The notes: generated by a model not told the origin, from the sequence alone. Counted from the stretch's first letter, positions 2,448-12,049 are shown. The stretch is 30,357 bases of DNA from Atribacterota bacterium (GCA_030668465.1 DAOUTX010000001.1:1-30357); one strand, 5' to 3'. Numbers and translations are program-made.

Positions 2448-2897
2448 CTATTTTGTAGTTGGTAATCCTTCTGATTTCCATTTAATAATCCCACCCAACA
2501 TATTATAGACTTCCCTAAAATCAAGCTCTTTCATTATATTTAAGGCATTTTCACTACGACGTCCGGATCTGCAATAAATAAGATATGTTTTGTTCTTATC
2601 CAATTTGTCAAGGTCATTCCTAAAAGTGTCAGAATAGTAATCTAAATTGACAGCATTTTCCATATACTCGCCTAAAAATTCTTCAGGAGTACGCACATCA
2701 AGAATTGTAAAATTTGGATTATCCTTGTTTTCTTTTATTAAGATATACGCTCCTTCCGGAGTGATATTTTTAATTATCTGGATTTGTGTTTCCGACTTTG
2801 TAGTGTTAGTTTCGGTTTGAATGCATGCACTCGTCAACAAAACCCCAATAATCAGAGCTCCCAAGAACAGCGATATCATTAAATTTTTTGGGTTCAT
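2448..2897 (-). CDS. Single-domain rhodanese-like protein, probable lipoprotein
   Basis: Hydrophobic N-terminus ending LTSAC (lipobox-like); ILDVRTPEEF; active-site loop YCRSGRRS; YNMLGGIIKW. Confidence 0.9.
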   Translation of the reverse strand: MNPKNLMISLFLGALIIGVLLTSACIQTETNTTKSETQIQIIKNITPEGAYILIKENKDNPNFTILDVRTPEEFLGEYMENAVNLDYYSDTFRNDLDKLDKNKTYLIYCRSGRRSENALNIMKELDFREVYNMLGGIIKWKSEGLPTTK

Positions 2898-2970: not shown

Positions 2971-3498
2971 TTAATCCTGTAAATTGGGTGTTATATTAGG
3001 TATTTGGAACACTTCTGTTTCAACATATAAGTTAATTCTTGTATCTGGTACCTGAGGATCATTTGAATAAATATGGATATGTTTTTCATCTTTTCCCACA
3101 TAATCAGTAGTATCATAGGATACTTTAAGTTCAGCTGATTCTCCCGGTTTAATGCGAGTAGTAGAAATTGAAGCCTCTATACAAGGACAAGATTCTTTTA
3201 AGCTGTCAATAATTAAATCTCCTTCTCCCCCATTTTTTACAATAAAAATATGGGTGGGCTTTTCGCCTTGGATCACCTTTCCAAAATCCCATTCTTGTTC
3301 CGAAACCAGAATCCTTGGTTGAGGCCCAAAATTATTTTGGATAGCATTAGAAGAATTATTTTGGATAGCATTAGAAGAATTATTTTGGATAGTATTAGAA
3401 GAATTATTTTGGGTAGTACTAAATACCAAAACACCCCCCAATATAATTACCGCTATTATAAGAATGAATATTATTATATTTTTAGACATTGTTTTCAC
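2971..3498 (-). CDS. Membrane-anchored DUF1573-like Ig-fold protein with an Asn/Ser repeat linker
   Basis: N-terminal TM segment, (QNNSSNAI)n linker, then WDFGKV...FIVKNGGEGDLIIDSLKESCPC...IKPGESAELKVSYD...IYSNDP, the pattern of the DUF1573/ASH-type domain. Confidence 0.75.
   Translation of the reverse strand: MKTMSKNIIIFILIIAVIILGGVLVFSTTQNNSSNTIQNNSSNAIQNNSSNAIQNNFGPQPRILVSEQEWDFGKVIQGEKPTHIFIVKNGGEGDLIIDSLKESCPCIEASISTTRIKPGESAELKVSYDTTDYVGKDEKHIHIYSNDPQVPDTRINLYVETEVFQIPNITPNLQD
3330..3412. repeat. In-frame 24-bp tandem repeat, about 3.5 copies
   Basis: Unit AATTATTTTGGATAG(C/T)ATTAGAAG at 3330, 3354 and 3378, plus a partial copy at 3402; encodes QNNSSN(T/A)I. Confidence 0.95.
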
Positions 3499-3534: not shown

Positions 3535-4230
3535 TCAATAATATAAATCAGATTTTTCTTTAGGGACAACCTTTCCATCCTGAAGATGGATTATCCTTTG
3601 AGTGGCCTGGGCTAATTCCAAATTATGAGTAGCAATAACTATAGCCAGGCCTTTTTCACTCAAATTCTTAAAAAGTTCTAAAATTTGCTCTCCAACTTTT
3701 ATCTCTAATTTACCGGTTGGTTCATCGGCAACAAGTATCTTGGGATCATTAACCAAAGCTCGTGCAATACCTGTGCGTTGTTTGTCTCCCCCGGATAAAT
3801 GTTTTACCTGAATTCCTTCTTTATCTTCAAGATTCACTTCTTTTAGCAAATCTAATATATTTTTCGCGTTAATGTTTTTCTTTGCAAAAATTAAAGGTAA
3901 TTCTACGTTTTCTCTAACAGTTAAGGTTGGAATTAAATAAAACCGTTGGAAGATAAAACCAATATTCTCCCTTCTGATCTTTATTAAATCAATCTCCTCA
4001 AGAGAAGCAACATCGTTATCGCCAATCTTCAAACTCCCTGCTGTAACCTTATCAAGGCAGCCAATCAGGTTCATTAAAGTGGTTTTTCCTGAGCCAGAAG
4101 GACCAACAATTGAAATAATTTCACTTCCTTTAATTTTTAAATCTACTCCATCAAGAGCTTTAACAATTTCTGAACCTCGATGATAATGTTTTTTTAAATT
4201 CTTTGCTTCTAAAACTATCTTATCCTGCAT
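3535..4230 (-). CDS. ABC ATPase, LolD/MacB (FtsE-like) family, second copy with an altered D-loop
   Basis: Walker A GPSGSGKT, signature LSGGDKQR, Walker B ILVADE followed by PTGKLE (usually PTGNLD), H-loop ATHN. Confidence 0.92.
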   Translation of the reverse strand: MQDKIVLEAKNLKKHYHRGSEIVKALDGVDLKIKGSEIISIVGPSGSGKTTLMNLIGCLDKVTAGSLKIGDNDVASLEEIDLIKIRRENIGFIFQRFYLIPTLTVRENVELPLIFAKKNINAKNILDLLKEVNLEDKEGIQVKHLSGGDKQRTGIARALVNDPKILVADEPTGKLEIKVGEQILELFKNLSEKGLAIVIATHNLELAQATQRIIHLQDGKVVPKEKSDLYY

Positions 4231-4231
4231 T

Positions 4232-4921
4232 TTATTTTACCAACCTTTCATCCTTTTCCATTTTCCCATCATTTAAATGAATCACTCTATCCGCTGAATA
4301 ACCTAATCTAATATTATGAGTAGCAACTATAATAGTTAAACCCTCTTCCCTATTGAGATTTCGAAAAAGACTAAAAAGTTCTTGTGCATTCTTGGTATCT
4401 AAGTTACCTGTTGGCTCATCCGCAAGAAGAATCTCAGGATTATTAGCTAAAGCTCTGGCCACCGCTACTCTCTGTAATTCTCCTCCGCTTAATTCATTAG
4501 GAAAATGAGTTAATCTATGATCTAAACCAACTCTTTTCAAGAGATCTCTTGGTCTATTATTATTTTTATAATTTCGGGCAAAAATCAGAGGTAGTTGAAC
4601 ATTTTCCAATGCATTTAAAAATGAAATTAAGAAAAAATCCTCAAATACAAACCCAATTTTTTCTATTCGGATACGGCTAAGTTTTTCTTCATTAAATTTT
4701 GTAGGGTTGCTTCCTAAAATATCTAACTTGCCTGAAGTAGGTCTATCTAAACATCCGATCAAATTTAAAAAGGTAGTTTTTCCTGCTCCTGATGCTCCCA
4801 TTATAGTGACGAATTCACCTTTTTTTATCTCAATATCTATTTCCTTTAAGGCTATTATTTTTTGGGATGCAGAGAAGTATACCTTCTTTAGCTTATTGGC
4901 TTTTACAATATACTCTCTCAC
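4232..4921 (-). CDS. ABC ATPase, LolD/MacB family, canonical
   Basis: GASGAGKT, LSGGELQR, LLADEPTGNLD and ATHN. The GTG start overlaps the permease TAG at 4921. Confidence 0.94.
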   Translation of the reverse strand: MREYIVKANKLKKVYFSASQKIIALKEIDIEIKKGEFVTIMGASGAGKTTFLNLIGCLDRPTSGKLDILGSNPTKFNEEKLSRIRIEKIGFVFEDFFLISFLNALENVQLPLIFARNYKNNNRPRDLLKRVGLDHRLTHFPNELSGGELQRVAVARALANNPEILLADEPTGNLDTKNAQELFSLFRNLNREEGLTIIVATHNIRLGYSADRVIHLNDGKMEKDERLVK

Positions 4922-6105
4922 TATTCTCCACTCCTTATTACTTCAATAGGTCTCATTGAAGCTGCCTTAAATGCCGGATACAGTCCTGAAATTATACCTA
5001 TAATTATTACTCCCAGGAAAGAATAAACTAAAAGATCGGGAGTAATTAAGAGTAATCTACCACCTGGGGCATAAGGCATTACTTTTCTTACTAAAAGTTC
5101 GGTCAAATTTCCACCAAAAATCGCAATAACTGAGCCAAAGATACCACCTAAAGTACAAATAATAAGTGTTTCCATCCAGATGAGTTTAAATATATCTGAC
5201 CTTGAGGCTCCTATTGCCTTCATAATACCTATTTCTTGTGTTCGCTCGAAGACGCTCATTAATATGGTATTAATAACCCCAATAATAGCTACAAATATTG
5301 CGATAAAGGCAACAGACATAATCAATATTTTAGCTGAATTTACCAGATTTAAGATTGTCCCTTTAACCTGGCTCATGCTTATTACTTGAATGCTGGCAAT
5401 TGGATATAGCCTCTCTTCAAATTCTGAAATCTTCTCAATTTGTTTTAGCTTGATACCGATACCTGTCAGTTTGCCTTCTATATCAAAGACTCTTTGAGTT
5501 GTTTTCAGAGGTAAAAATACTGCTCCATCTTCCTGAGTAGCTGTTCTTTCAAAGATGCCCACAATAATTAAAGTAATATCTTTATCCGGTATGGAAATTT
5601 TATCTCCAACTGATTTTTGTTCTGATTCTGCTGCTTCGTATCCTAAAATTGCTTCATTAGCATTTTCGGCTGAGAACCATCCTCCAGATTTAAACTTAAC
5701 ATTTGGCTTAAGTTCAATGTAGCTTTTTTCGATTCCTAAATAATTAATAAAACCACCTTTACCGCCTTGTTTTTCCGGATCATAAGCTAATTGAGCAAGG
5801 AGTGGTGTAATCTTATCAATATCAGGATCACTGGTTATTTGATTATAGATATCCTCATCCATAAATCTAAGGCCTGCTTCTCCACTAAGTATCATAGTTG
5901 CTGCCTCGTAAGGGCAACCTTTGGCTGTTACAATAACTTGATATCCCATTTTATCGACATCAGAGGTTAATGCTTCTTGATACCCGGCATTAAAACCTAA
6001 AAGAGCGACTAAAACTGCTACTGCTACTGCTACTCCACCAATGGTTAAAAAAGAGCGGGATTTTCTCCGTTTCAAATTCTTATAAGCTAAAATAAAAAAT
6101 TTCAT
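4921..6105 (-). CDS. MacB/FtsX-family ABC permease (4 TM with a large periplasmic domain)
   Basis: RRKSRSFLTIGGVAVAVA TM1, periplasmic domain, NTILMSVFERTQEIGIMKAIGA, C-terminal GLYPAFKAASMRPIEVIR. Confidence 0.93.
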   Translation of the reverse strand: MKFFILAYKNLKRRKSRSFLTIGGVAVAVAVLVALLGFNAGYQEALTSDVDKMGYQVIVTAKGCPYEAATMILSGEAGLRFMDEDIYNQITSDPDIDKITPLLAQLAYDPEKQGGKGGFINYLGIEKSYIELKPNVKFKSGGWFSAENANEAILGYEAAESEQKSVGDKISIPDKDITLIIVGIFERTATQEDGAVFLPLKTTQRVFDIEGKLTGIGIKLKQIEKISEFEERLYPIASIQVISMSQVKGTILNLVNSAKILIMSVAFIAIFVAIIGVINTILMSVFERTQEIGIMKAIGASRSDIFKLIWMETLIICTLGGIFGSVIAIFGGNLTELLVRKVMPYAPGGRLLLITPDLLVYSFLGVIIIGIISGLYPAFKAASMRPIEVIRSGE

Positions 6106-6497
6106 TAAAATTCAACTCCCTTTCCATTAATGGTCATTCTTCCATTTCTATTCTCCGGTACCCCTTCTACAACTACCTTTTTCCCCACTTTTGGAGGAAT
6201 ACTAAGACCTGAAGGATTAATATCTACATAAATTGTACCTGTCTTATCTTCCAAAAAGAACCAGCATCCTGAGGAGCATTCTCGGACAATCTCTCCCTCC
6301 AATCTGACTGTTTGGTTAAGATATTCATTCGGACTAGTATAAATATCTTTTACGCTGGTAACTTTTTTTTCGGTAATATCAACACCATACCTCTCACTCT
6401 TATTGCTACCATTGCCACTACAACCTGAAACGCTCAATATGACTAATAAAATAATTAGTAATGCAGCAATTAATCTAATCTTCTTTGTTTTTCTCAT
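6105..6497 (-). CDS. OB-fold (DUF4920/BOF-like) lipoprotein with a CxxGC motif
   Basis: Start moved to ATG 6497 (AGGAGA upstream; the track uses 6527). Lipobox VSGC; VRLEGEIVRECSSGCWFFLEDKTGTIYVD...GKKVVVEG. The TAA overlaps the permease ATG. Confidence 0.7.
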   Translation of the reverse strand: MRKTKKIRLIAALLIILLVILSVSGCSGNGSNKSERYGVDITEKKVTSVKDIYTSPNEYLNQTVRLEGEIVRECSSGCWFFLEDKTGTIYVDINPSGLSIPPKVGKKVVVEGVPENRNGRMTINGKGVEF

Positions 6498-6587: not shown

Positions 6588-6619
6588 ATTACTACTTATT
6601 CTATCAAATAAGTAGTAAT
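6588..6619. promoter_or_regulatory. Palindromic operator, copy A (ATTACTACT-N14-AGTAGTAAT)
   Basis: Perfect 13-bp arms ATTACTACTTATT / AATAAGTAGTAAT around CTATCA; same outer arms and spacing as the site at 11787-11818. Confidence 0.75.
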
Positions 6620-6670
6620 TAAATTTAAAAAAATAAAGTACCTTGCCTATTTATTTTAACTATTAATAGA

Positions 6671-6687
6671 AGCAATTATTGTGCCAA
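6671..6687 (-). promoter_or_regulatory. Sigma54 -24/-12 promoter
   Basis: Minus strand reads TTGGCACAATAATTGCT, i.e. TGGCAC-N5-TTGCT, correctly oriented about 175 bp upstream of the lipoprotein start. Confidence 0.7.
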
Positions 6688-7026
6688 TTTATAAAGTTTA
6701 ATGTAAGAATATTTATTTTTAAAACGTATTCGGTGAAATAGTTGATAAATAAAGATCTTACTGATTCTCATTTAAAAAAATATTAAATAATATTTCTAAA
6801 CATTATTTAATCAATATTAATCGCCTTACCAGAAAGGGCAAACTTTTCTCATTTATCTACTAGAAACTGGGCAATTTTTTCCCATTAACTTCTTTTTCTG
6901 TGTTTTTAAAATAAATTACCTGGCCTATTTATAGAAGATTTATAATTATCCAAAAATTAAAAGCTCCTATGCTGGCAATTAATTTTATTTCCCAAAATCA
7001 AAAATGTATTTTTTCCTATTCTTAAA

Positions 7027-7218
7027 CTAACAACATCCGTGCAGTGGTGGTTGATGTTTCTCCGCCTTCTCAATGTATTTTTCGGGATTATCATCAAACT
7101 CTTTTTTACATCCTGGTGCACAAAAATAATAAGCTTTTTCTTTATATTCACTCTTGAACTTTGCTGTCTTTTCATCTACTTCCATTTTGCATATCGGATC
7201 AATAACCACATTGGTCAC
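7027..7218 (-). CDS. Small YHS-domain protein with a His/Cys tail
   Basis: DPICKMEV...YKEKAYYFCAPGCKKEFDDNPEKY, then HQPPLHGCC; AAGGAGG RBS; starts 7 bp after the copA stop. Confidence 0.9.
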   Translation of the reverse strand: MTNVVIDPICKMEVDEKTAKFKSEYKEKAYYFCAPGCKKEFDDNPEKYIEKAEKHQPPLHGCC

Positions 7219-7225
7219 CTCCTTT

Positions 7226-9955
7226 TTATGTTGAAATTTCCTTTACCGGTGGTACATACTTTTTTAACATCAGAGAAAGGCTTATCACAGTTACAGAGCT
7301 CATAGCCATAGCTAACCCTGCAAGTTCAGGCCTAAAAGTAATTCCGAAAAAAGGGTATAATATTCCTGCCGCTACCGGAATTAGAGCAGTATTATAAGCA
7401 AAAGCCCAAAATATATTTTGTTTAATTCTCGATATCACTTTTTTACTTAATTGTATAGCTGCCACTGCATCCAAAAGATCATCCTTTATAAGTACTATAT
7501 CTCCGGTTTCTATTGCTACATCTGTCCCGCTGCCTATAGCAATACCCACATCTGCCTGAGCAAGGGCTGGTGCATCATTAATTCCATCACCTACAAAGGC
7601 AACTACCTCCCCTTTCTCTTGAAGTTTTTGTACTTCCTTTGCTTTATCATGAGGTAAGACTTCTGCTAACACATTTACAATTCCAGCTTGTTTGGCGATT
7701 GCGTTTGCAGTTCTAATATTATCACCGGTAATCATAAAAATATTAAATCTCATATCTTTAAATTCCTTAATTGCACTTTTGGTTGTTCCTTTTAACGTAT
7801 CAGTAATAGCTATCATACCAGCCATCTTGTTATTAAAAGCAATCAGCATTACTGTCTTTCCTTCGTTTTCAAATTGAAAAATATTGTTCTCAATCCCTTC
7901 AGGTAGTAAAATATTTTTCTCTTTTAAAAGAATTCTGTTGCCTATTAGTATTTCTTTTTCTTCTACTTTTGCTATTACACCTTTCCCCCTAAAAGTGTTA
8001 AAATATTCGCTACTAAGAAGTTCAATCCCACTATCTATTGATTTTTTTACAATTGCTTCAGCAAGAGGATGTTTAGAATTCTTTTCCACACTTGCCGTAA
8101 ATTTTAGTAGTGTTCTATTTTCAACTTCAATACCGATTATATCTGTAACCTCCGGTTTCCCTTTAGTAAGAGTTCCGGTTTTATCAAATATTATAGTGGT
8201 CAATTTCTCAGATCTTTCCAGAGCTTCTCCATTTTTAATAAGAACACCAAGCTCAGCTCCCCGGCCTACTCCTACCGTCACAGCAGTAGGAGTAGCCAGA
8301 CCAAGTGCACACGGGCAAGCAATAACTAAAACTGAAATTAAATTAGTTAACGCGAAAAGAAAACTATTATCAAGAATTAAATACCAGACCACAAAAGAAA
8401 GAAGAGCAATTATTAATACTGTGGGAATAAAATAATTTACCGCTTTATCTGCAATTCTTTGAATGGGTGGCTTTGAGCTCTGAGCTTCTTCTACAAGTTT
8501 TATGATTTGAGATAGCATGGTATCTCTTCCTACTTTGGTTGCTACAAATCTTATTACACCATTTTTATTAATGGTTCCTCCAACAATCTTGTCACCTTTT
8601 TCTTTTAATGGTGAAATGGACTCTCCAGTAATCATTGATTCATCCACAAAACTCTCACCATCAATAACTTCACCATCCACAGGGATTTTTTCTCCTGGTT
8701 TGACTATTAATATATCATTTAATGCCACCTTTTCTATGGATATTTCCTGCTCTTCAAAAATTGAGAGCAGTTTACTAATCAACATATCTTTAGGTGGATA
8801 TACAAAGATTCTATTATTATAATTGTAAACTCTGCAGATAAATAATTTATTAACCTTTCCTTCTATATCTCTTTTATTCAATAAAATAGTTGGTGATCCG
8901 TAAAAGGAATAATCTTTAAAATTCTCTTTAGTTACTTCTATTAACTTGATAGGGGCAGAAATATTCAACTTCTTTAGAGCATCTTTTACTTGTTCTGCTG
9001 ACTTGTTATAGTTCGGGCAATCTCTAAAATATAAGATTTCTATATCTATATTTTTGGGCCTTAAAATGTCAGCGGTCTTTGGTTGTAAACCCATTAATTT
9101 TTTAATCGCTTCTGATGTCTTCCCTTTTGCCCTTGATTCCAAATACCGTCCCATGGTAAGAAAGGTAGCTAAAAAAATTGCTGTCTCATAAAATAAAAAT
9201 CTACTGGAAAGTATAAAATTAAAAGTAGCCAAAAGACTTGCTCCAAAAGCAACCCCTATCCCCATAGAATACATTACATCCATATTTAAACTCTTATTTT
9301 TTAAAGAACGATAAGCAGCAGTAAAAATAGGATGGCTTATATAAATAAAAGCAGGAGTTGAAATAAGCAACATTAAATAAGCCGTTGAAATAGGTAAATT
9401 AATAGGAATATACATAAGAATCATCAAAAGAGTACCGGTAGTAAACCCCACAATAATTCGGTTGCGTTTTTCTTTTAAATCCTTTTCTCTTGTAACTTTT
9501 TCAAAATCTTCTGTTTTTTCTCCTTCTATACCTAAGAATTGATATCCGGCTTCTTCAATATTTCTTCTCATGTCGGCTTGGGTTACAATATTTGGATTAT
9601 AAATAACAATTGCTTTTTCACCAGCAAGATTAATATTAACCTCTATGATTCCATCCAATCTCAGGAGAGAATTTTCTATTGTTTTTACGCAAGTAGCACA
9701 AGTCATCCCTCCAATTTTTAGAACGACTTTATCGTTTATTATTTGGTAACCTGCGTTCTTTATGGCTTTGTCTAAATCAGTAAACCTTAGCTTTAAAAAA
9801 TCATATTCTACTGCAACGCTCTCGTTCCCAAGATTCACTTGCGCATTGATGACACCATTCAGATTTATTAATGACTTCTCAATTGTTGTGGCACACATTG
9901 CGCAAGTCATTCCAGAAATCTTAAGTTCAATTTTTTTAGTCTTTTCCAAAAACAT
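7226..9955 (-). CDS. copA: Cu(I)-exporting P1B-1 ATPase with two N-terminal HMA domains and an extra ~100-aa insertion
   Basis: GMTCAMC and GMTCATC HMA motifs, TGES, CPCALGLATP, DKTGT, HP, GDGINDAPALA, YN and MAMSS Cu(I) ligands; insertion at about aa 300-400. Confidence 0.96.
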   Translation of the reverse strand: MFLEKTKKIELKISGMTCAMCATTIEKSLINLNGVINAQVNLGNESVAVEYDFLKLRFTDLDKAIKNAGYQIINDKVVLKIGGMTCATCVKTIENSLLRLDGIIEVNINLAGEKAIVIYNPNIVTQADMRRNIEEAGYQFLGIEGEKTEDFEKVTREKDLKEKRNRIIVGFTTGTLLMILMYIPINLPISTAYLMLLISTPAFIYISHPIFTAAYRSLKNKSLNMDVMYSMGIGVAFGASLLATFNFILSSRFLFYETAIFLATFLTMGRYLESRAKGKTSEAIKKLMGLQPKTADILRPKNIDIEILYFRDCPNYNKSAEQVKDALKKLNISAPIKLIEVTKENFKDYSFYGSPTILLNKRDIEGKVNKLFICRVYNYNNRIFVYPPKDMLISKLLSIFEEQEISIEKVALNDILIVKPGEKIPVDGEVIDGESFVDESMITGESISPLKEKGDKIVGGTINKNGVIRFVATKVGRDTMLSQIIKLVEEAQSSKPPIQRIADKAVNYFIPTVLIIALLSFVVWYLILDNSFLFALTNLISVLVIACPCALGLATPTAVTVGVGRGAELGVLIKNGEALERSEKLTTIIFDKTGTLTKGKPEVTDIIGIEVENRTLLKFTASVEKNSKHPLAEAIVKKSIDSGIELLSSEYFNTFRGKGVIAKVEEKEILIGNRILLKEKNILLPEGIENNIFQFENEGKTVMLIAFNNKMAGMIAITDTLKGTTKSAIKEFKDMRFNIFMITGDNIRTANAIAKQAGIVNVLAEVLPHDKAKEVQKLQEKGEVVAFVGDGINDAPALAQADVGIAIGSGTDVAIETGDIVLIKDDLLDAVAAIQLSKKVISRIKQNIFWAFAYNTALIPVAAGILYPFFGITFRPELAGLAMAMSSVTVISLSLMLKKYVPPVKEIST

Positions 9956-10009
9956 GTTCTTGCCTCATAGACAATTAAATTTTTACTTTTTATTCTTATG
10001 CACAACTCT

Positions 10010-10918
10010 TTAAGGCGGACATTTTCCACATATTGACCTGAATAAGTTAGTACTTAAGTAACGGTCTCCCCGATCAGGTAAAATTACTACGATTATTCCA
10101 GAATCCATTTTTTTGGCCATGCGCAAGGCTCCTACAATTGCAGCACCACTGGACATGCCTACAAAAATACCTTCTTTAGTGGCAAGTAATCTGGTTACCT
10201 CGTAAGCTGGGTCATCCTCAACGGTAATTTTCTCATCTAATTTTTCTGAATGATATATCTTGGGGACAATTGATTCTTGCATATTTTTAAGCCCCTGTAT
10301 TTTATGCGCCATTGTTGGTTCAACTCCTACAACTTTAATTTGCGGCTTCTTTTCCTTGAGATATTTACCCGTCCCCATTAGAGTTCCTCCGGTCCCCATA
10401 CCTGCTACAAATACATCAATTTCTCCCTTGGTTTGCGAAAATATTTCTGGCCCGGTGGTCTCATAGTGAGCAAGAACATTATTCTCGTTTTCAAATTGAT
10501 TGGGCATATAATATTTATCAGGCTCTTCGGTAATGAGCTGATGAGCTTTTCTAATAGCACCATCTGTAGTTTCCTTGGCAGGAGTGAGTACAACTTCAGC
10601 ATCAAATGCCTCGATAATACTACGCCTTTCTAAACTCACACATTCAGGCATACAAAGTTTTACTTTATATCCCCTGGCTGCTCCTATCATTGCCAGGGCA
10701 ATTCCAGTATTTCCTGAAGTAGGTTCAAGTATTGTTTTTCCTTTGATAAGTTCACCTGACTCTTCTGCTTTTTTGAGCATATAATAGGCAGGACGATCTT
10801 TTACTGAACCACCAGGATTACTTCCTTCAAGCTTGCCAAAAATTCTTACCTTTGAAATTCCATTTAGATTATTTAACTCAACAAGCGGCGTACTGCCGAT
10901 AGCGGACAACAGGTTCAT
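10010..10918 (-). CDS. cysM: Cysteine synthase (O-acetylserine sulfhydrylase, CysM/CysK family)
   Basis: KLEGSNPGGSVKDR (PLP lysine), EPTSGNTG, NQFEN, GMGTGGT, GMSSGA; C-terminus CGKCPP. CysM versus CysK is a judgement call. Confidence 0.9.
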   Translation of the reverse strand: MNLLSAIGSTPLVELNNLNGISKVRIFGKLEGSNPGGSVKDRPAYYMLKKAEESGELIKGKTILEPTSGNTGIALAMIGAARGYKVKLCMPECVSLERRSIIEAFDAEVVLTPAKETTDGAIRKAHQLITEEPDKYYMPNQFENENNVLAHYETTGPEIFSQTKGEIDVFVAGMGTGGTLMGTGKYLKEKKPQIKVVGVEPTMAHKIQGLKNMQESIVPKIYHSEKLDEKITVEDDPAYEVTRLLATKEGIFVGMSSGAAIVGALRMAKKMDSGIIVVILPDRGDRYLSTNLFRSICGKCPP

Positions 10919-10988
10919 AATTTTCTCCTAAACGTCTTTTTATTTCCTAATTTTTTATAACTATTTTATATCCCGTATAAGGAATTAA

Positions 10989-11303
10989 TTAACTTTTCAA
11001 AACTTTTTTCATTTTTTCAAATTCTTTTTCGGTAATTTCTCCCTTTGCAAATCGTTCTTTGATAATATCTAAGGAAGTTTCGCTAAATCCCCCAGTATAT
11101 CTATTTGATTTTGTATTGGTAATGATAAAATAAATTATCAATCCAATAACAATTGCAAATATGAACATCATAAACATTCCCCCTCCATAGCCAAAATTCA
11201 TCATTTGATTCCACCCCCATGTAAATCCACAGCCCTCTACATCAGCAAATGCAAGAACTGGAAAAATAAATAATATTACAAAAACCATAATCAATACCCT
11301 CAT
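10989..11303 (-). CDS. SHOCT-domain membrane protein with a Met/Gly-rich segment
   Basis: Start moved to ATG 11303 (GAGGTG RBS). Signal-like N-terminus, WGWNQMMNFGYGGGMFMM, a TM segment, C-terminal LDIIKERFAKGEITEKEFEKMKKVL. Confidence 0.85.
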   Translation of the reverse strand: MRVLIMVFVILFIFPVLAFADVEGCGFTWGWNQMMNFGYGGGMFMMFIFAIVIGLIIYFIITNTKSNRYTGGFSETSLDIIKERFAKGEITEKEFEKMKKVLKS

Positions 11304-11352
11304 AAATTTCACCTCTTTTTTATTTAAAATATGCGAAATAGGATAGTAATAA

Positions 11353-11769
11353 TTAGTCTATTTCTTTTTGCGAGTTCATTAAATCCTCCAAAGTAATAGA
11401 GCTAAGTTCATCGGAAATTTTTTCATCCAATTTTTCCCAGACACCTCGAGTTGCACATTTGGAAACCCTGGAACAAATAGAGGGATTTTTTACACATTCC
11501 ACACAACTTATGCCCCCTTCAAGGGTTTGCACAATCTCTTTGAGAGTTATTTGGGAAGGAGATTTAGCTAACTTATACCCTCCGTGGGCTCCTCGAGAAG
11601 AGCTTATCAACCCGCTTGCCCTAAGGGGGATAACCAGGTGACTTAAATATTTTTCGGAAATCTCTTCCTTTTCGGCAATATCCTTCAAAAAGATAGTTCC
11701 CTTATCAAAATTTAAGGCTAATTCTAACATTAACCTTGTACCATATCTTGCTCTGGTAGAGAGCCTCAT
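11353..11769 (-). CDS. Rrf2-family transcriptional regulator (IscR/CymR-like, Cys-rich)
   Basis: Start moved to ATG 11769 (GAGGTG RBS). MRLSTRARYG, EISEKYLSHL, SSRGAHGGYKLAK, EGGISCVECVKNPSICSRVSKCATRGVW. Confidence 0.95.
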   Translation of the reverse strand: MRLSTRARYGTRLMLELALNFDKGTIFLKDIAEKEEISEKYLSHLVIPLRASGLISSSRGAHGGYKLAKSPSQITLKEIVQTLEGGISCVECVKNPSICSRVSKCATRGVWEKLDEKISDELSSITLEDLMNSQKEID

Positions 11770-11786
11770 AAAATTCACCTCGCTTA

Positions 11787-11818
11787 ATTACTACTATTAC
11801 TATTACTTTAGTAGTGAT
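11787..11818. promoter_or_regulatory. Palindromic operator, copy B (ATTACTACT-N14-AGTAGTGAT), over the rrf2 -10/start region
   Basis: Inverted arms TAATTACTACTA (11785-11796) and TAGTAGTGATTA (11809-11820) with one mismatch; matches the site at 6588. Confidence 0.75.
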
Positions 11819-11845
11819 TATAATATAAAAAAATATTTTTGTCAA
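11817..11845 (-). promoter_or_regulatory. Consensus sigma70 promoter of the rrf2 operon
   Basis: TTGACA (11845-11840), 17-bp spacer, TATAAT (11822-11817): an exact consensus. Confidence 0.9.
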
Positions 11846-11866
11846 CTATTAATATTTTCGTACCTA

Positions 11867-12044
11867 GTATCTCGTGGATCGTATCTCGTATAAAATACAG
11901 TAACAAGTAATATGTAATGAGTAATAAGATTACAGTTATGATTTTACAAAAACAATTTATTTAATACATTTCACACATTACACAATTTAACTGGTAAACA
12001 GGAAAACTGGTTAATTGGGTAAATAAAAACTGTGAACCGGAAAC
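11867..12044. repeat. Mosaic of short periodic 7- and 8-mer tracts
   Basis: GTATCTC-based tract at 11867; AGTAACA AGTAATA TGTAATG AGTAATA (11899-11926); TTAACTGG TAAACAGG AAAACTGG TTAATTGG (11987-12018); TAAAAAC TGTGAAC CGGAAAC (12024-12044). Confidence 0.6.
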
Positions 12045-12049
12045 ATTTT

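Follow-up and report, generated by a model that had tools for sequence, protein, structure and literature searches.

The window analysed here, the whole of a 30,357-nt stretch of DNA from an Atribacterota bacterium (GCA_030668465.1 DAOUTX010000001.1:1-30357), carries two copies of a 32-bp inverted-repeat motif, site A (6588..6619) and site B (11787..11818), which lie at either end of an operon headed by the gene for an Rrf2-family regulator and which we predict to be operators of that regulator. All genes of the region are on the minus strand, and both sites are read on the same strand. The operon runs in the order rrf2-SHOCT-cysK-copA-YHS. Its first gene, rrf2 (11353..11769), starts at ATG 11769 behind the ribosome-binding site (RBS) GAGGTG and encodes a 138-aa protein with cysteines at positions 92, 99 and 105. 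It is followed by the gene for a small membrane protein with a C-terminal SHOCT domain (10989..11312), present in some orthologous operons and absent in others, and by that for a cysteine synthase of the CysK/CysM type (10010..10918), which scores 383 bits with TIGR01136 (cysKM; cut-off 344) and stays below the separate cysK and cysM equivalog cut-offs. The two remaining genes encode a copper-type P1B ATPase (CopA; 7226..9955; TIGR01511, 591 bits against a cut-off of 397), in which Pfam models place two HMA domains and a thioredoxin-like insert, and a 60-aa YHS-domain protein (7027..7209; PF04945, 59.4 bits). Beyond site A follows a second block of genes, referred to below as the ABC module: an OB-fold (YgiW-like) lipoprotein (6105..6497), which is syntenic in relatives with a site ahead of it, a MacB/FtsX-type ABC permease (4921..6105), two ABC ATPases (4232-4921 and 3535-4230, jointly 3535..4921), a DUF1573/Ig-like anchored protein (2971..3498) and, as the last gene, a rhodanese-domain protein (2448..2897). 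The sequencing runs that contain the window sequence come from marine sediment and cold seeps, habitats in which, as in oil reservoirs, Atribacterota are abundant; to our knowledge the phylum is almost uncultured and its gene regulation essentially uncharted.

On the coding (minus) strand the two sites share the form ACTACT-N6-ATAG-N4-AGTAGT with flanks AT(T/C) and AAT, site B reading ATCACTACT-N14-AGTAGTAAT. An earlier note, made from the sequence of this DNA, had reported the 32-mers at 6588 and 11787 with a shared N14 spacing and a common CTAT, and both read exactly as quoted, the CTAT (ATAG on the coding strand) occupying an identical spacer position in sites A and B. The 9-bp inverted arms given in the same note needed revision in their extent: the repeat itself is confirmed, the arms of site A pair perfectly over 13+13 bp around a 6-nt centre, and those of site B are complementary at 8/9 positions with one mismatch, the wider palindrome there extending over 11784-11821. 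Cores with up to two mismatches are expected 0.01 times per window (100 shuffles), against the two sites seen, each of which was matched on both strands. Throughout the assembly (1.30 Mb in 237 contigs, 34.4% G+C, 77% complete), ACTACT-N14-AGTAGT occurs at sites A and B only. A position matrix built from 31 related sites ranked site B as the top hit of the genome (score 50.8) and site A as the second (39.7), and the only third site that it returned lies on contig C150 (C150:454-491, score 37.9); the next unrelated match scored 14.4, and the scores in between belong to the reverse strands of sites A and B alone. The genome-wide scan proposed in the earlier note yields three sites and not a frequent intergenic motif, and because of this rarity, in the shuffles as well as in the genome, we regard the two-site motif as real and not a product of chance.

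Site B lies on the rrf2 promoter (11817..11845, minus strand), which agrees with the consensus at 12/12 positions, having a -35 TTGACA (11845-11840), a 17-nt spacer and a -10 TATAAT (11822-11817). The site starts on the last two bases of the -10 (11818), extends about 30 bp downstream and leaves 11 nt to the RBS-like GAGGTG and 17 nt to the rrf2 start codon, and the earlier description of this copy as covering the -10/start region of a consensus promoter stands, with an overlap of two bases. Site B is thus placed as an operator overlapping a sigma-70-type promoter, and judged by the sequence its position is the classic one for a repressor that would block open-complex formation or promoter escape. 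Autoregulation from a palindrome at its own promoter is the textbook circuit type for an Rrf2 protein. The adjoining spacer between ychF and the rrf2 promoter (11846-12049) contains short repeats of the GATAC/ATACG type that differ between relatives, and the same stretch has very high contig depth and many loose ends in metatranscriptome X19, as in a repeated or highly expressed element.

Site A lies inside the 530-bp spacer between the YHS gene and the OB-lipoprotein gene, 91-122 nt upstream of the OB-lipoprotein ATG (6497), its end being 91 nt from that codon. A site stands before the OB-lipoprotein/MacB module in 8/8 genomes in which that region is assembled (the window, G011, G012, G014 with a degenerate copy, G018 with a redoxin gene in between, G021, L052 and L055), some 50-120 nt ahead; this count leaves out G002 and several other relatives, whose contigs break off about 120 nt or less from the OB-lipoprotein gene. 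The gene preceding the region varies (copA-YHS, cysK-YHS or nifU), and in an alignment of the eight spacers site A is the sole well-conserved block besides the RBS region. An RNA-library contig of a related strain has 322 nt of the spacer (6632-6953) swapped for 39 other letters and leaves site A intact. Because the site is conserved in all eight genomes and kept in this strain variant, inclusion of the ABC module in the regulon is supported. The earlier note placed this copy in the leader of the ABC module; the site is upstream of the module in every one of these genomes, and the sequences accommodate a leader, a promoter and a path of read-through alike. The terminator scan of the window found no terminator between the YHS gene and the ABC module. 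Metatranscriptome contigs cover parts of both modules, their uncovered stretches being uninformative, and one of them, from a strain whose spacer is shorter, spans the YHS gene, site A and the OB-lipoprotein gene. We rejected such bridging contigs as evidence of read-through, since they show no starts, strand or single transcripts and could come from DNA carry-over.

The motif accompanies the regulator among its relatives. Rrf2 orthologues of 64-95% identity were present in 25 relatives from the genus, family and order, and all of them have the motif 0-5 nt after TTGACA-17-TAnnnT, the hexamers and the motif being kept while the region upstream of the promoters is unrelated in sequence. A collection-wide search added a metagenome-assembled genome (MAG) of Deltaproteobacteria (60% identity) and one of Omnitrophota (53%), both with this box at the matching position. 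Taken together, rrf2 orthologues of 53-95% identity are preceded by 21 distinct autoregulatory sites that start 0-5 nt after the -10 within diverged flanks, and the site profile (model R1) has exactly one strong match in the Deltaproteobacteria genome (3.5 Mb) and one in that of Omnitrophota (2.3 Mb), both at rrf2. Phylogenetic footprinting, which the earlier note had suggested, thus finds the motif kept at every rrf2 orthologue promoter. The motif is present in 26/26 relatives with an rrf2 orthologue and in 3/15 without one, these three being incomplete MAGs; the counts are descriptive and do not constitute a test, as the relatives are kin. As no gene other than rrf2 goes with the motif in every case, the rrf2 product is the natural candidate for the binder.

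The regulator belongs to the Rrf2 family, as PF02082 scores 131.7 bits over residues 3-132 (cut-off 30) and TIGR00738 scores 131.5 (cut-off 73.3), and it lies below the cut-off of the NsrR equivalog (NF008240, 44.4 bits against 182). Its nearest solved relative is the IscR of Thermincola potens (4CIC, E 2.5e-28), with CymR second (2Y75, E 1.2e-24). Cys92, Cys99 and Cys105 line up with the three cluster ligands for which 4CIC has Ser in place of Cys by mutation, and this triad is conserved in the Rrf2 orthologues and in many more distant homologues and is absent from CymR-like proteins of Bacillales; going by the alignment, an iron-sulfur (Fe-S) cluster is most likely held by these three residues. 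Atribacterota have YLSHL as the recognition helix, and the two further phyla with the motif have YLSL or YLWQ, against YLEQ (YLEQL) in IscR, CymR and homologues without the motif. A clade-specific recognition helix that accompanies a distinct operator is consistent with an altered DNA specificity. Given the presence of iscS-nifU in the operons of relatives, the best description of the regulator is IscR/CymR-like.

We interpret site A, site B and the C150 site as predicted operators of the neighbouring IscR/CymR-like Fe-S Rrf2 repressor (11353-11769), and place the probability of this reading at roughly 0.72. Its starting points are the motif with its rarity, promoter position, conservation and co-occurrence with the regulator, together with a conserved target set, and from these we infer binding by Rrf2, repression, a bound cluster and the identity of the signal. 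Cluster-bound Rrf2 at site B would lie over the last part of the -10 and the region of the start and so shut off its own operon, and at site A it would gate transcription into the OB-lipoprotein/MacB ABC/DUF1573/rhodanese module, acting either on a weak local promoter beneath the site or as a roadblock to read-through from the upstream rrf2 operon. Once the cluster is lost or damaged, the repressor would come off its operators, with a joint rise in cysteine supply, Cu(I) export and the thiol-rich envelope module. Candidate triggers include Fe-S demand, a shortage of cysteine, sulfide or iron, oxidants, and thiophilic metals such as Cu(I), and the combination of targets (a cysteine synthase, an Fe-S scaffold, a copper pump and thiol-rich envelope proteins) would suit Fe-S damage caused by thiophilic metals or a shortage of sulfur or iron. 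The DNA-binding form and the release trigger are modelled by analogy on IscR, NsrR and RsrR, and cluster-bound IscR represses (both summarised in PMC11672702).

Several points weigh against this interpretation. The protein scores below the equivalog cut-offs for IscR (TIGR02010, 107.6 against 207.55; NF008110, 95.7 against 275) and also for CymR, although the CymR model is its best equivalog hit (NF047409, 127.2 against 195). The central ATAG is invariant in the 31 distinct sites and always has the same orientation relative to the downstream gene, and a simple model of a symmetric dimer on a palindrome does not explain the layout with such an asymmetric element; a third half-site or a second dimer is a possible explanation. 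The spacing of the arms, 20 bp centre to centre, is wider than is known for the sites of IscR, NsrR or other Rrf2 proteins. At site A an acceptable -35 is missing, and TTTAAT, the hexamer in register with the -10 of rrf2, is without the critical A at position 2, so that a promoter there is at best putative; in terms of an operator lying on a promoter, the -35 is absent and the -10-like hexamer weak. As the relatives are kin, the co-occurrence counts overstate their independence, and with an assembly that is 77% complete the list of regulon members is a minimum. Other candidates for a site A promoter were rejected, namely two 9/12 promoter-like matches (6687-6659 and 6814-6787), located in non-conserved spacer that is replaced in the strain variant, and a TGn-TATGAT element near the RBS, conserved only in part.

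The genes under the operator vary among genomes. The constant part of the operon is rrf2 and, nearly always, cysK, the two being linked in loci of Atribacterota, Deltaproteobacteria and Omnitrophota, and copA is an accessory that in relatives is replaced by iscS-nifU or missing. Alternative Atribacterota operons under the operator are rrf2-SHOCT-cysK-iscS-nifU or rrf2-iscS-nifU-YHS (L055, L056), and the loci of Deltaproteobacteria and Omnitrophota read rrf2-(nadA or DUF3034)-metY-cysK-metX-metW. These contents suggest that the ancestral regulator served to supply cysteine, sulfur and Fe-S, a task like that of IscR, CymR and Cpe1786. The likeliest of the alternatives is CymR-type logic, under which Rrf2 would bind only in a complex with the co-encoded cysteine synthase and the signal would be O-acetylserine/cysteine, as for CymR-CysK of Bacillus subtilis (the dependence is summarised in PMC9338935). 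The near-constant cysK in three phyla and the 127-bit CymR match speak for it, and so does the conserved Y/H-x-I C-terminal tail found in homologues outside Atribacterota, CymR orthologues of Bacillales among them. A Y-x-I tail resembles the C-terminal Ile peptides known to insert into the active site of CysK. The Atribacterota proteins, however, are truncated before this tail (that of the window ends in ...KEID) and retain all three cluster cysteines, which are missing in CymR; the CymR score is under its cut-off of 195, and L056 has the operator and rrf2-iscS-nifU with no intact cysK in the operon. We therefore consider CymR-type logic improbable, and retain a cluster-based Rrf2 repressor as the preferred reading.

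The asymmetric ATAG and the 20-bp arm spacing, being unusual among known Rrf2 sites, could also point to another transcription factor as the binder of the motif. This has little to commend it when rrf2 is the sole gene invariably beside the motif in three phyla, two of which have just one site in each genome, and when site and orthologue co-occur in 26/26 relatives against 3/15. Similarly small is the chance that site A is what remains, without function, of a promoter-operator cassette once copied to this place. Such a cassette, some 65 bp long and near-identical to that of rrf2 (TTGACA, spacer, TATAAT, operator), has indeed been copied to other loci: six relatives have it downstream of selB-selD, before an Ig-domain lipoprotein gene, and on C150 (C150:430-700, locus L177) it precedes the gene for a 418-aa membrane protein without a family match. 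Site A, for its part, has lost the -35. It is nonetheless the one well-conserved block in a spacer that has diverged among eight genomes, and the strain variant that replaces 322 nt with 39 letters retains it. That the sites act as RNA hairpins (terminator, attenuator or processing site) rather than as protein-binding DNA is hardly credible, for although the sense strand of site A folds well (-14.5 kcal/mol, z -6.7) and lies between two gene blocks, the fold of site B is no better than that of shuffles (-6.5 kcal/mol, z -1.25) and its 5' arm is probably not transcribed because the site overlaps the -10, an intrinsic terminator test of both sites called none, the stems being A+U-rich and a U-tract absent after either, the arms are kept as sequence and not as pairs (in L062 the outermost positions differ on both sides and are non-complementary), and an Rfam search of the window gave zero family matches.

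With these alternatives weighed, the claim of the earlier note that one Rrf2 operator governs both the rrf2 operon and the ABC module is supported, on sequence grounds, by the footprinting, the co-occurrence and the sites in 8/8 genomes. Its further step, that the two modules make one functional system, overreaches, because co-regulation does not make one machine; the OB-lipoprotein/MacB module is present in 11/41 relatives, all of one family, and copA is an accessory. Atribacterota genomes have 1-5 sites each, and further targets in single relatives are redoxin, PCYCGC-motif and OsmC-like genes. The iscS-nifU genes of the window's own genome are on contig C81, where no site was found. Copper export is attached to the regulon in a second way in G028, a genome of another family, which has a separate consensus promoter and operator before a copper-type ATPase (TIGR01511, 628 bits). 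Attachment in two ways in two lineages argues for a functional link over a chance arrangement of genes.

The 41 relatives yielded neither a CueR nor a convincing CopY. The sole CsoR-family gene of the assembly (in the stretch 4480-9234 of contig C53) precedes mcsA-mcsB-clpC, and in our reading of its sequence the protein has a Trp at the second Cys of the C-H-C set of copper-CsoR. A gene position before mcsA-mcsB-clpC is that of CtsR in Firmicutes. A bolder proposal, which we put forward as speculation with the odds clearly against it, is that the Fe-S Rrf2 protein, and not a CsoR, CueR or CopY, could be the working sensor of stress from copper and other thiophilic metals in Atribacterota: Cu(I) damage to the cluster would derepress the copper ATPase, the cysteine synthase, the Fe-S assembly genes and a cysteine-rich envelope ABC machine as one damage-repair regulon, and the operator would be read in an unusual layout of three elements, two arms plus an oriented central ATAG. 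CsoR, CueR and CopY likewise control copA-type exporters from operators at promoters, but they belong to other protein families and sense Cu(I) directly. A 2024 review of metal sensing lists no Rrf2 protein controlling copper export (PMC11672702).

Among characterized Rrf2 systems, IscR (E. coli; T. potens, 4CIC/4CHU) resembles the window's regulator in its Rrf2 fold, in the three aligned cysteines, in an operator on its own promoter and in the iscS-nifU genes of the relatives' operons. It differs in that the window protein is below the IscR cut-off and has the YLSHL helix, and the operon here has copA-YHS and is without isc genes. The ACTACT-N6-ATAG-N4-AGTAGT form, with its arms 20 bp apart, appears unlike the type 1 and type 2 boxes of IscR, and we agree with the earlier note that the motif does not look like the known IscR, CymR or NsrR box. 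CymR (B. subtilis, S. aureus), with its partner CysK, is similar as the best equivalog hit, through the solved relative 2Y75 and through the tie to cysteine synthase and cysteine metabolism; it differs in having no cluster cysteines where the window protein has three, in that cysK is here a target in the same operon, and in the Y-x-I tail, which the window protein does not have. Cpe1786 of Clostridium perfringens (rrf2-iscS-iscU-trmU) is an uncharacterized Rrf2 protein between CymR and IscR, and its operon is induced by cysteine limitation (PMC2940859). An Rrf2-headed Fe-S/cysteine operon with the same gene logic is found in the Atribacterota loci L055 and L056, but Cpe1786 belongs to a different phylum, and the study of it (PMC2940859) defined no operator and names neither copA nor YHS nor an ABC module among the linked Fe-S cluster genes. 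Our literature searches found no published Rrf2 operator of this kind, nor any report linking Rrf2 with Atribacter or Rrf2 with YHS.

The circuit type is familiar; what is new is an operator of its own, in a little-studied phylum, with an unusual branch to copper and the envelope within a small regulon. The analysis yields a candidate 38-bp operator consensus, a named regulator and a short list of targets for Atribacterota, and suggests that cysteine supply, Fe-S assembly, copper export and a cysteine-rich MacB-type module may stand under one cluster-based signal. For an uncharacterized ABC module the analysis provides a functional lead, and it offers an example in which an altered Rrf2 recognition helix is paired with an altered operator.

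Some further features of these loci deserve mention. After the rhodanese gene, and on the same strand (1-2175), come nadA, a PP-loop (LarE-like) enzyme and a cysteine desulfurase fragment, and the matrix scan found no site in the gap between the rhodanese gene and nadA. At the Deltaproteobacteria locus (L060:8477-9379) nadA is the first gene after rrf2, so that NadA, an Fe-S enzyme, may be linked to this regulator family. The insert in CopA (8756-9058, approximately residues 304-392) is thioredoxin-like or DUF2703-like, with weak Pfam matches below the cut-off. Behind the copied promoter-operator cassette stands a conserved leader that can form a hairpin (TCAAGAA...TTCTTGA), seen on C150 (C150:430-700) and at two further loci (L161:2800-2960 and L152:2750-2900).

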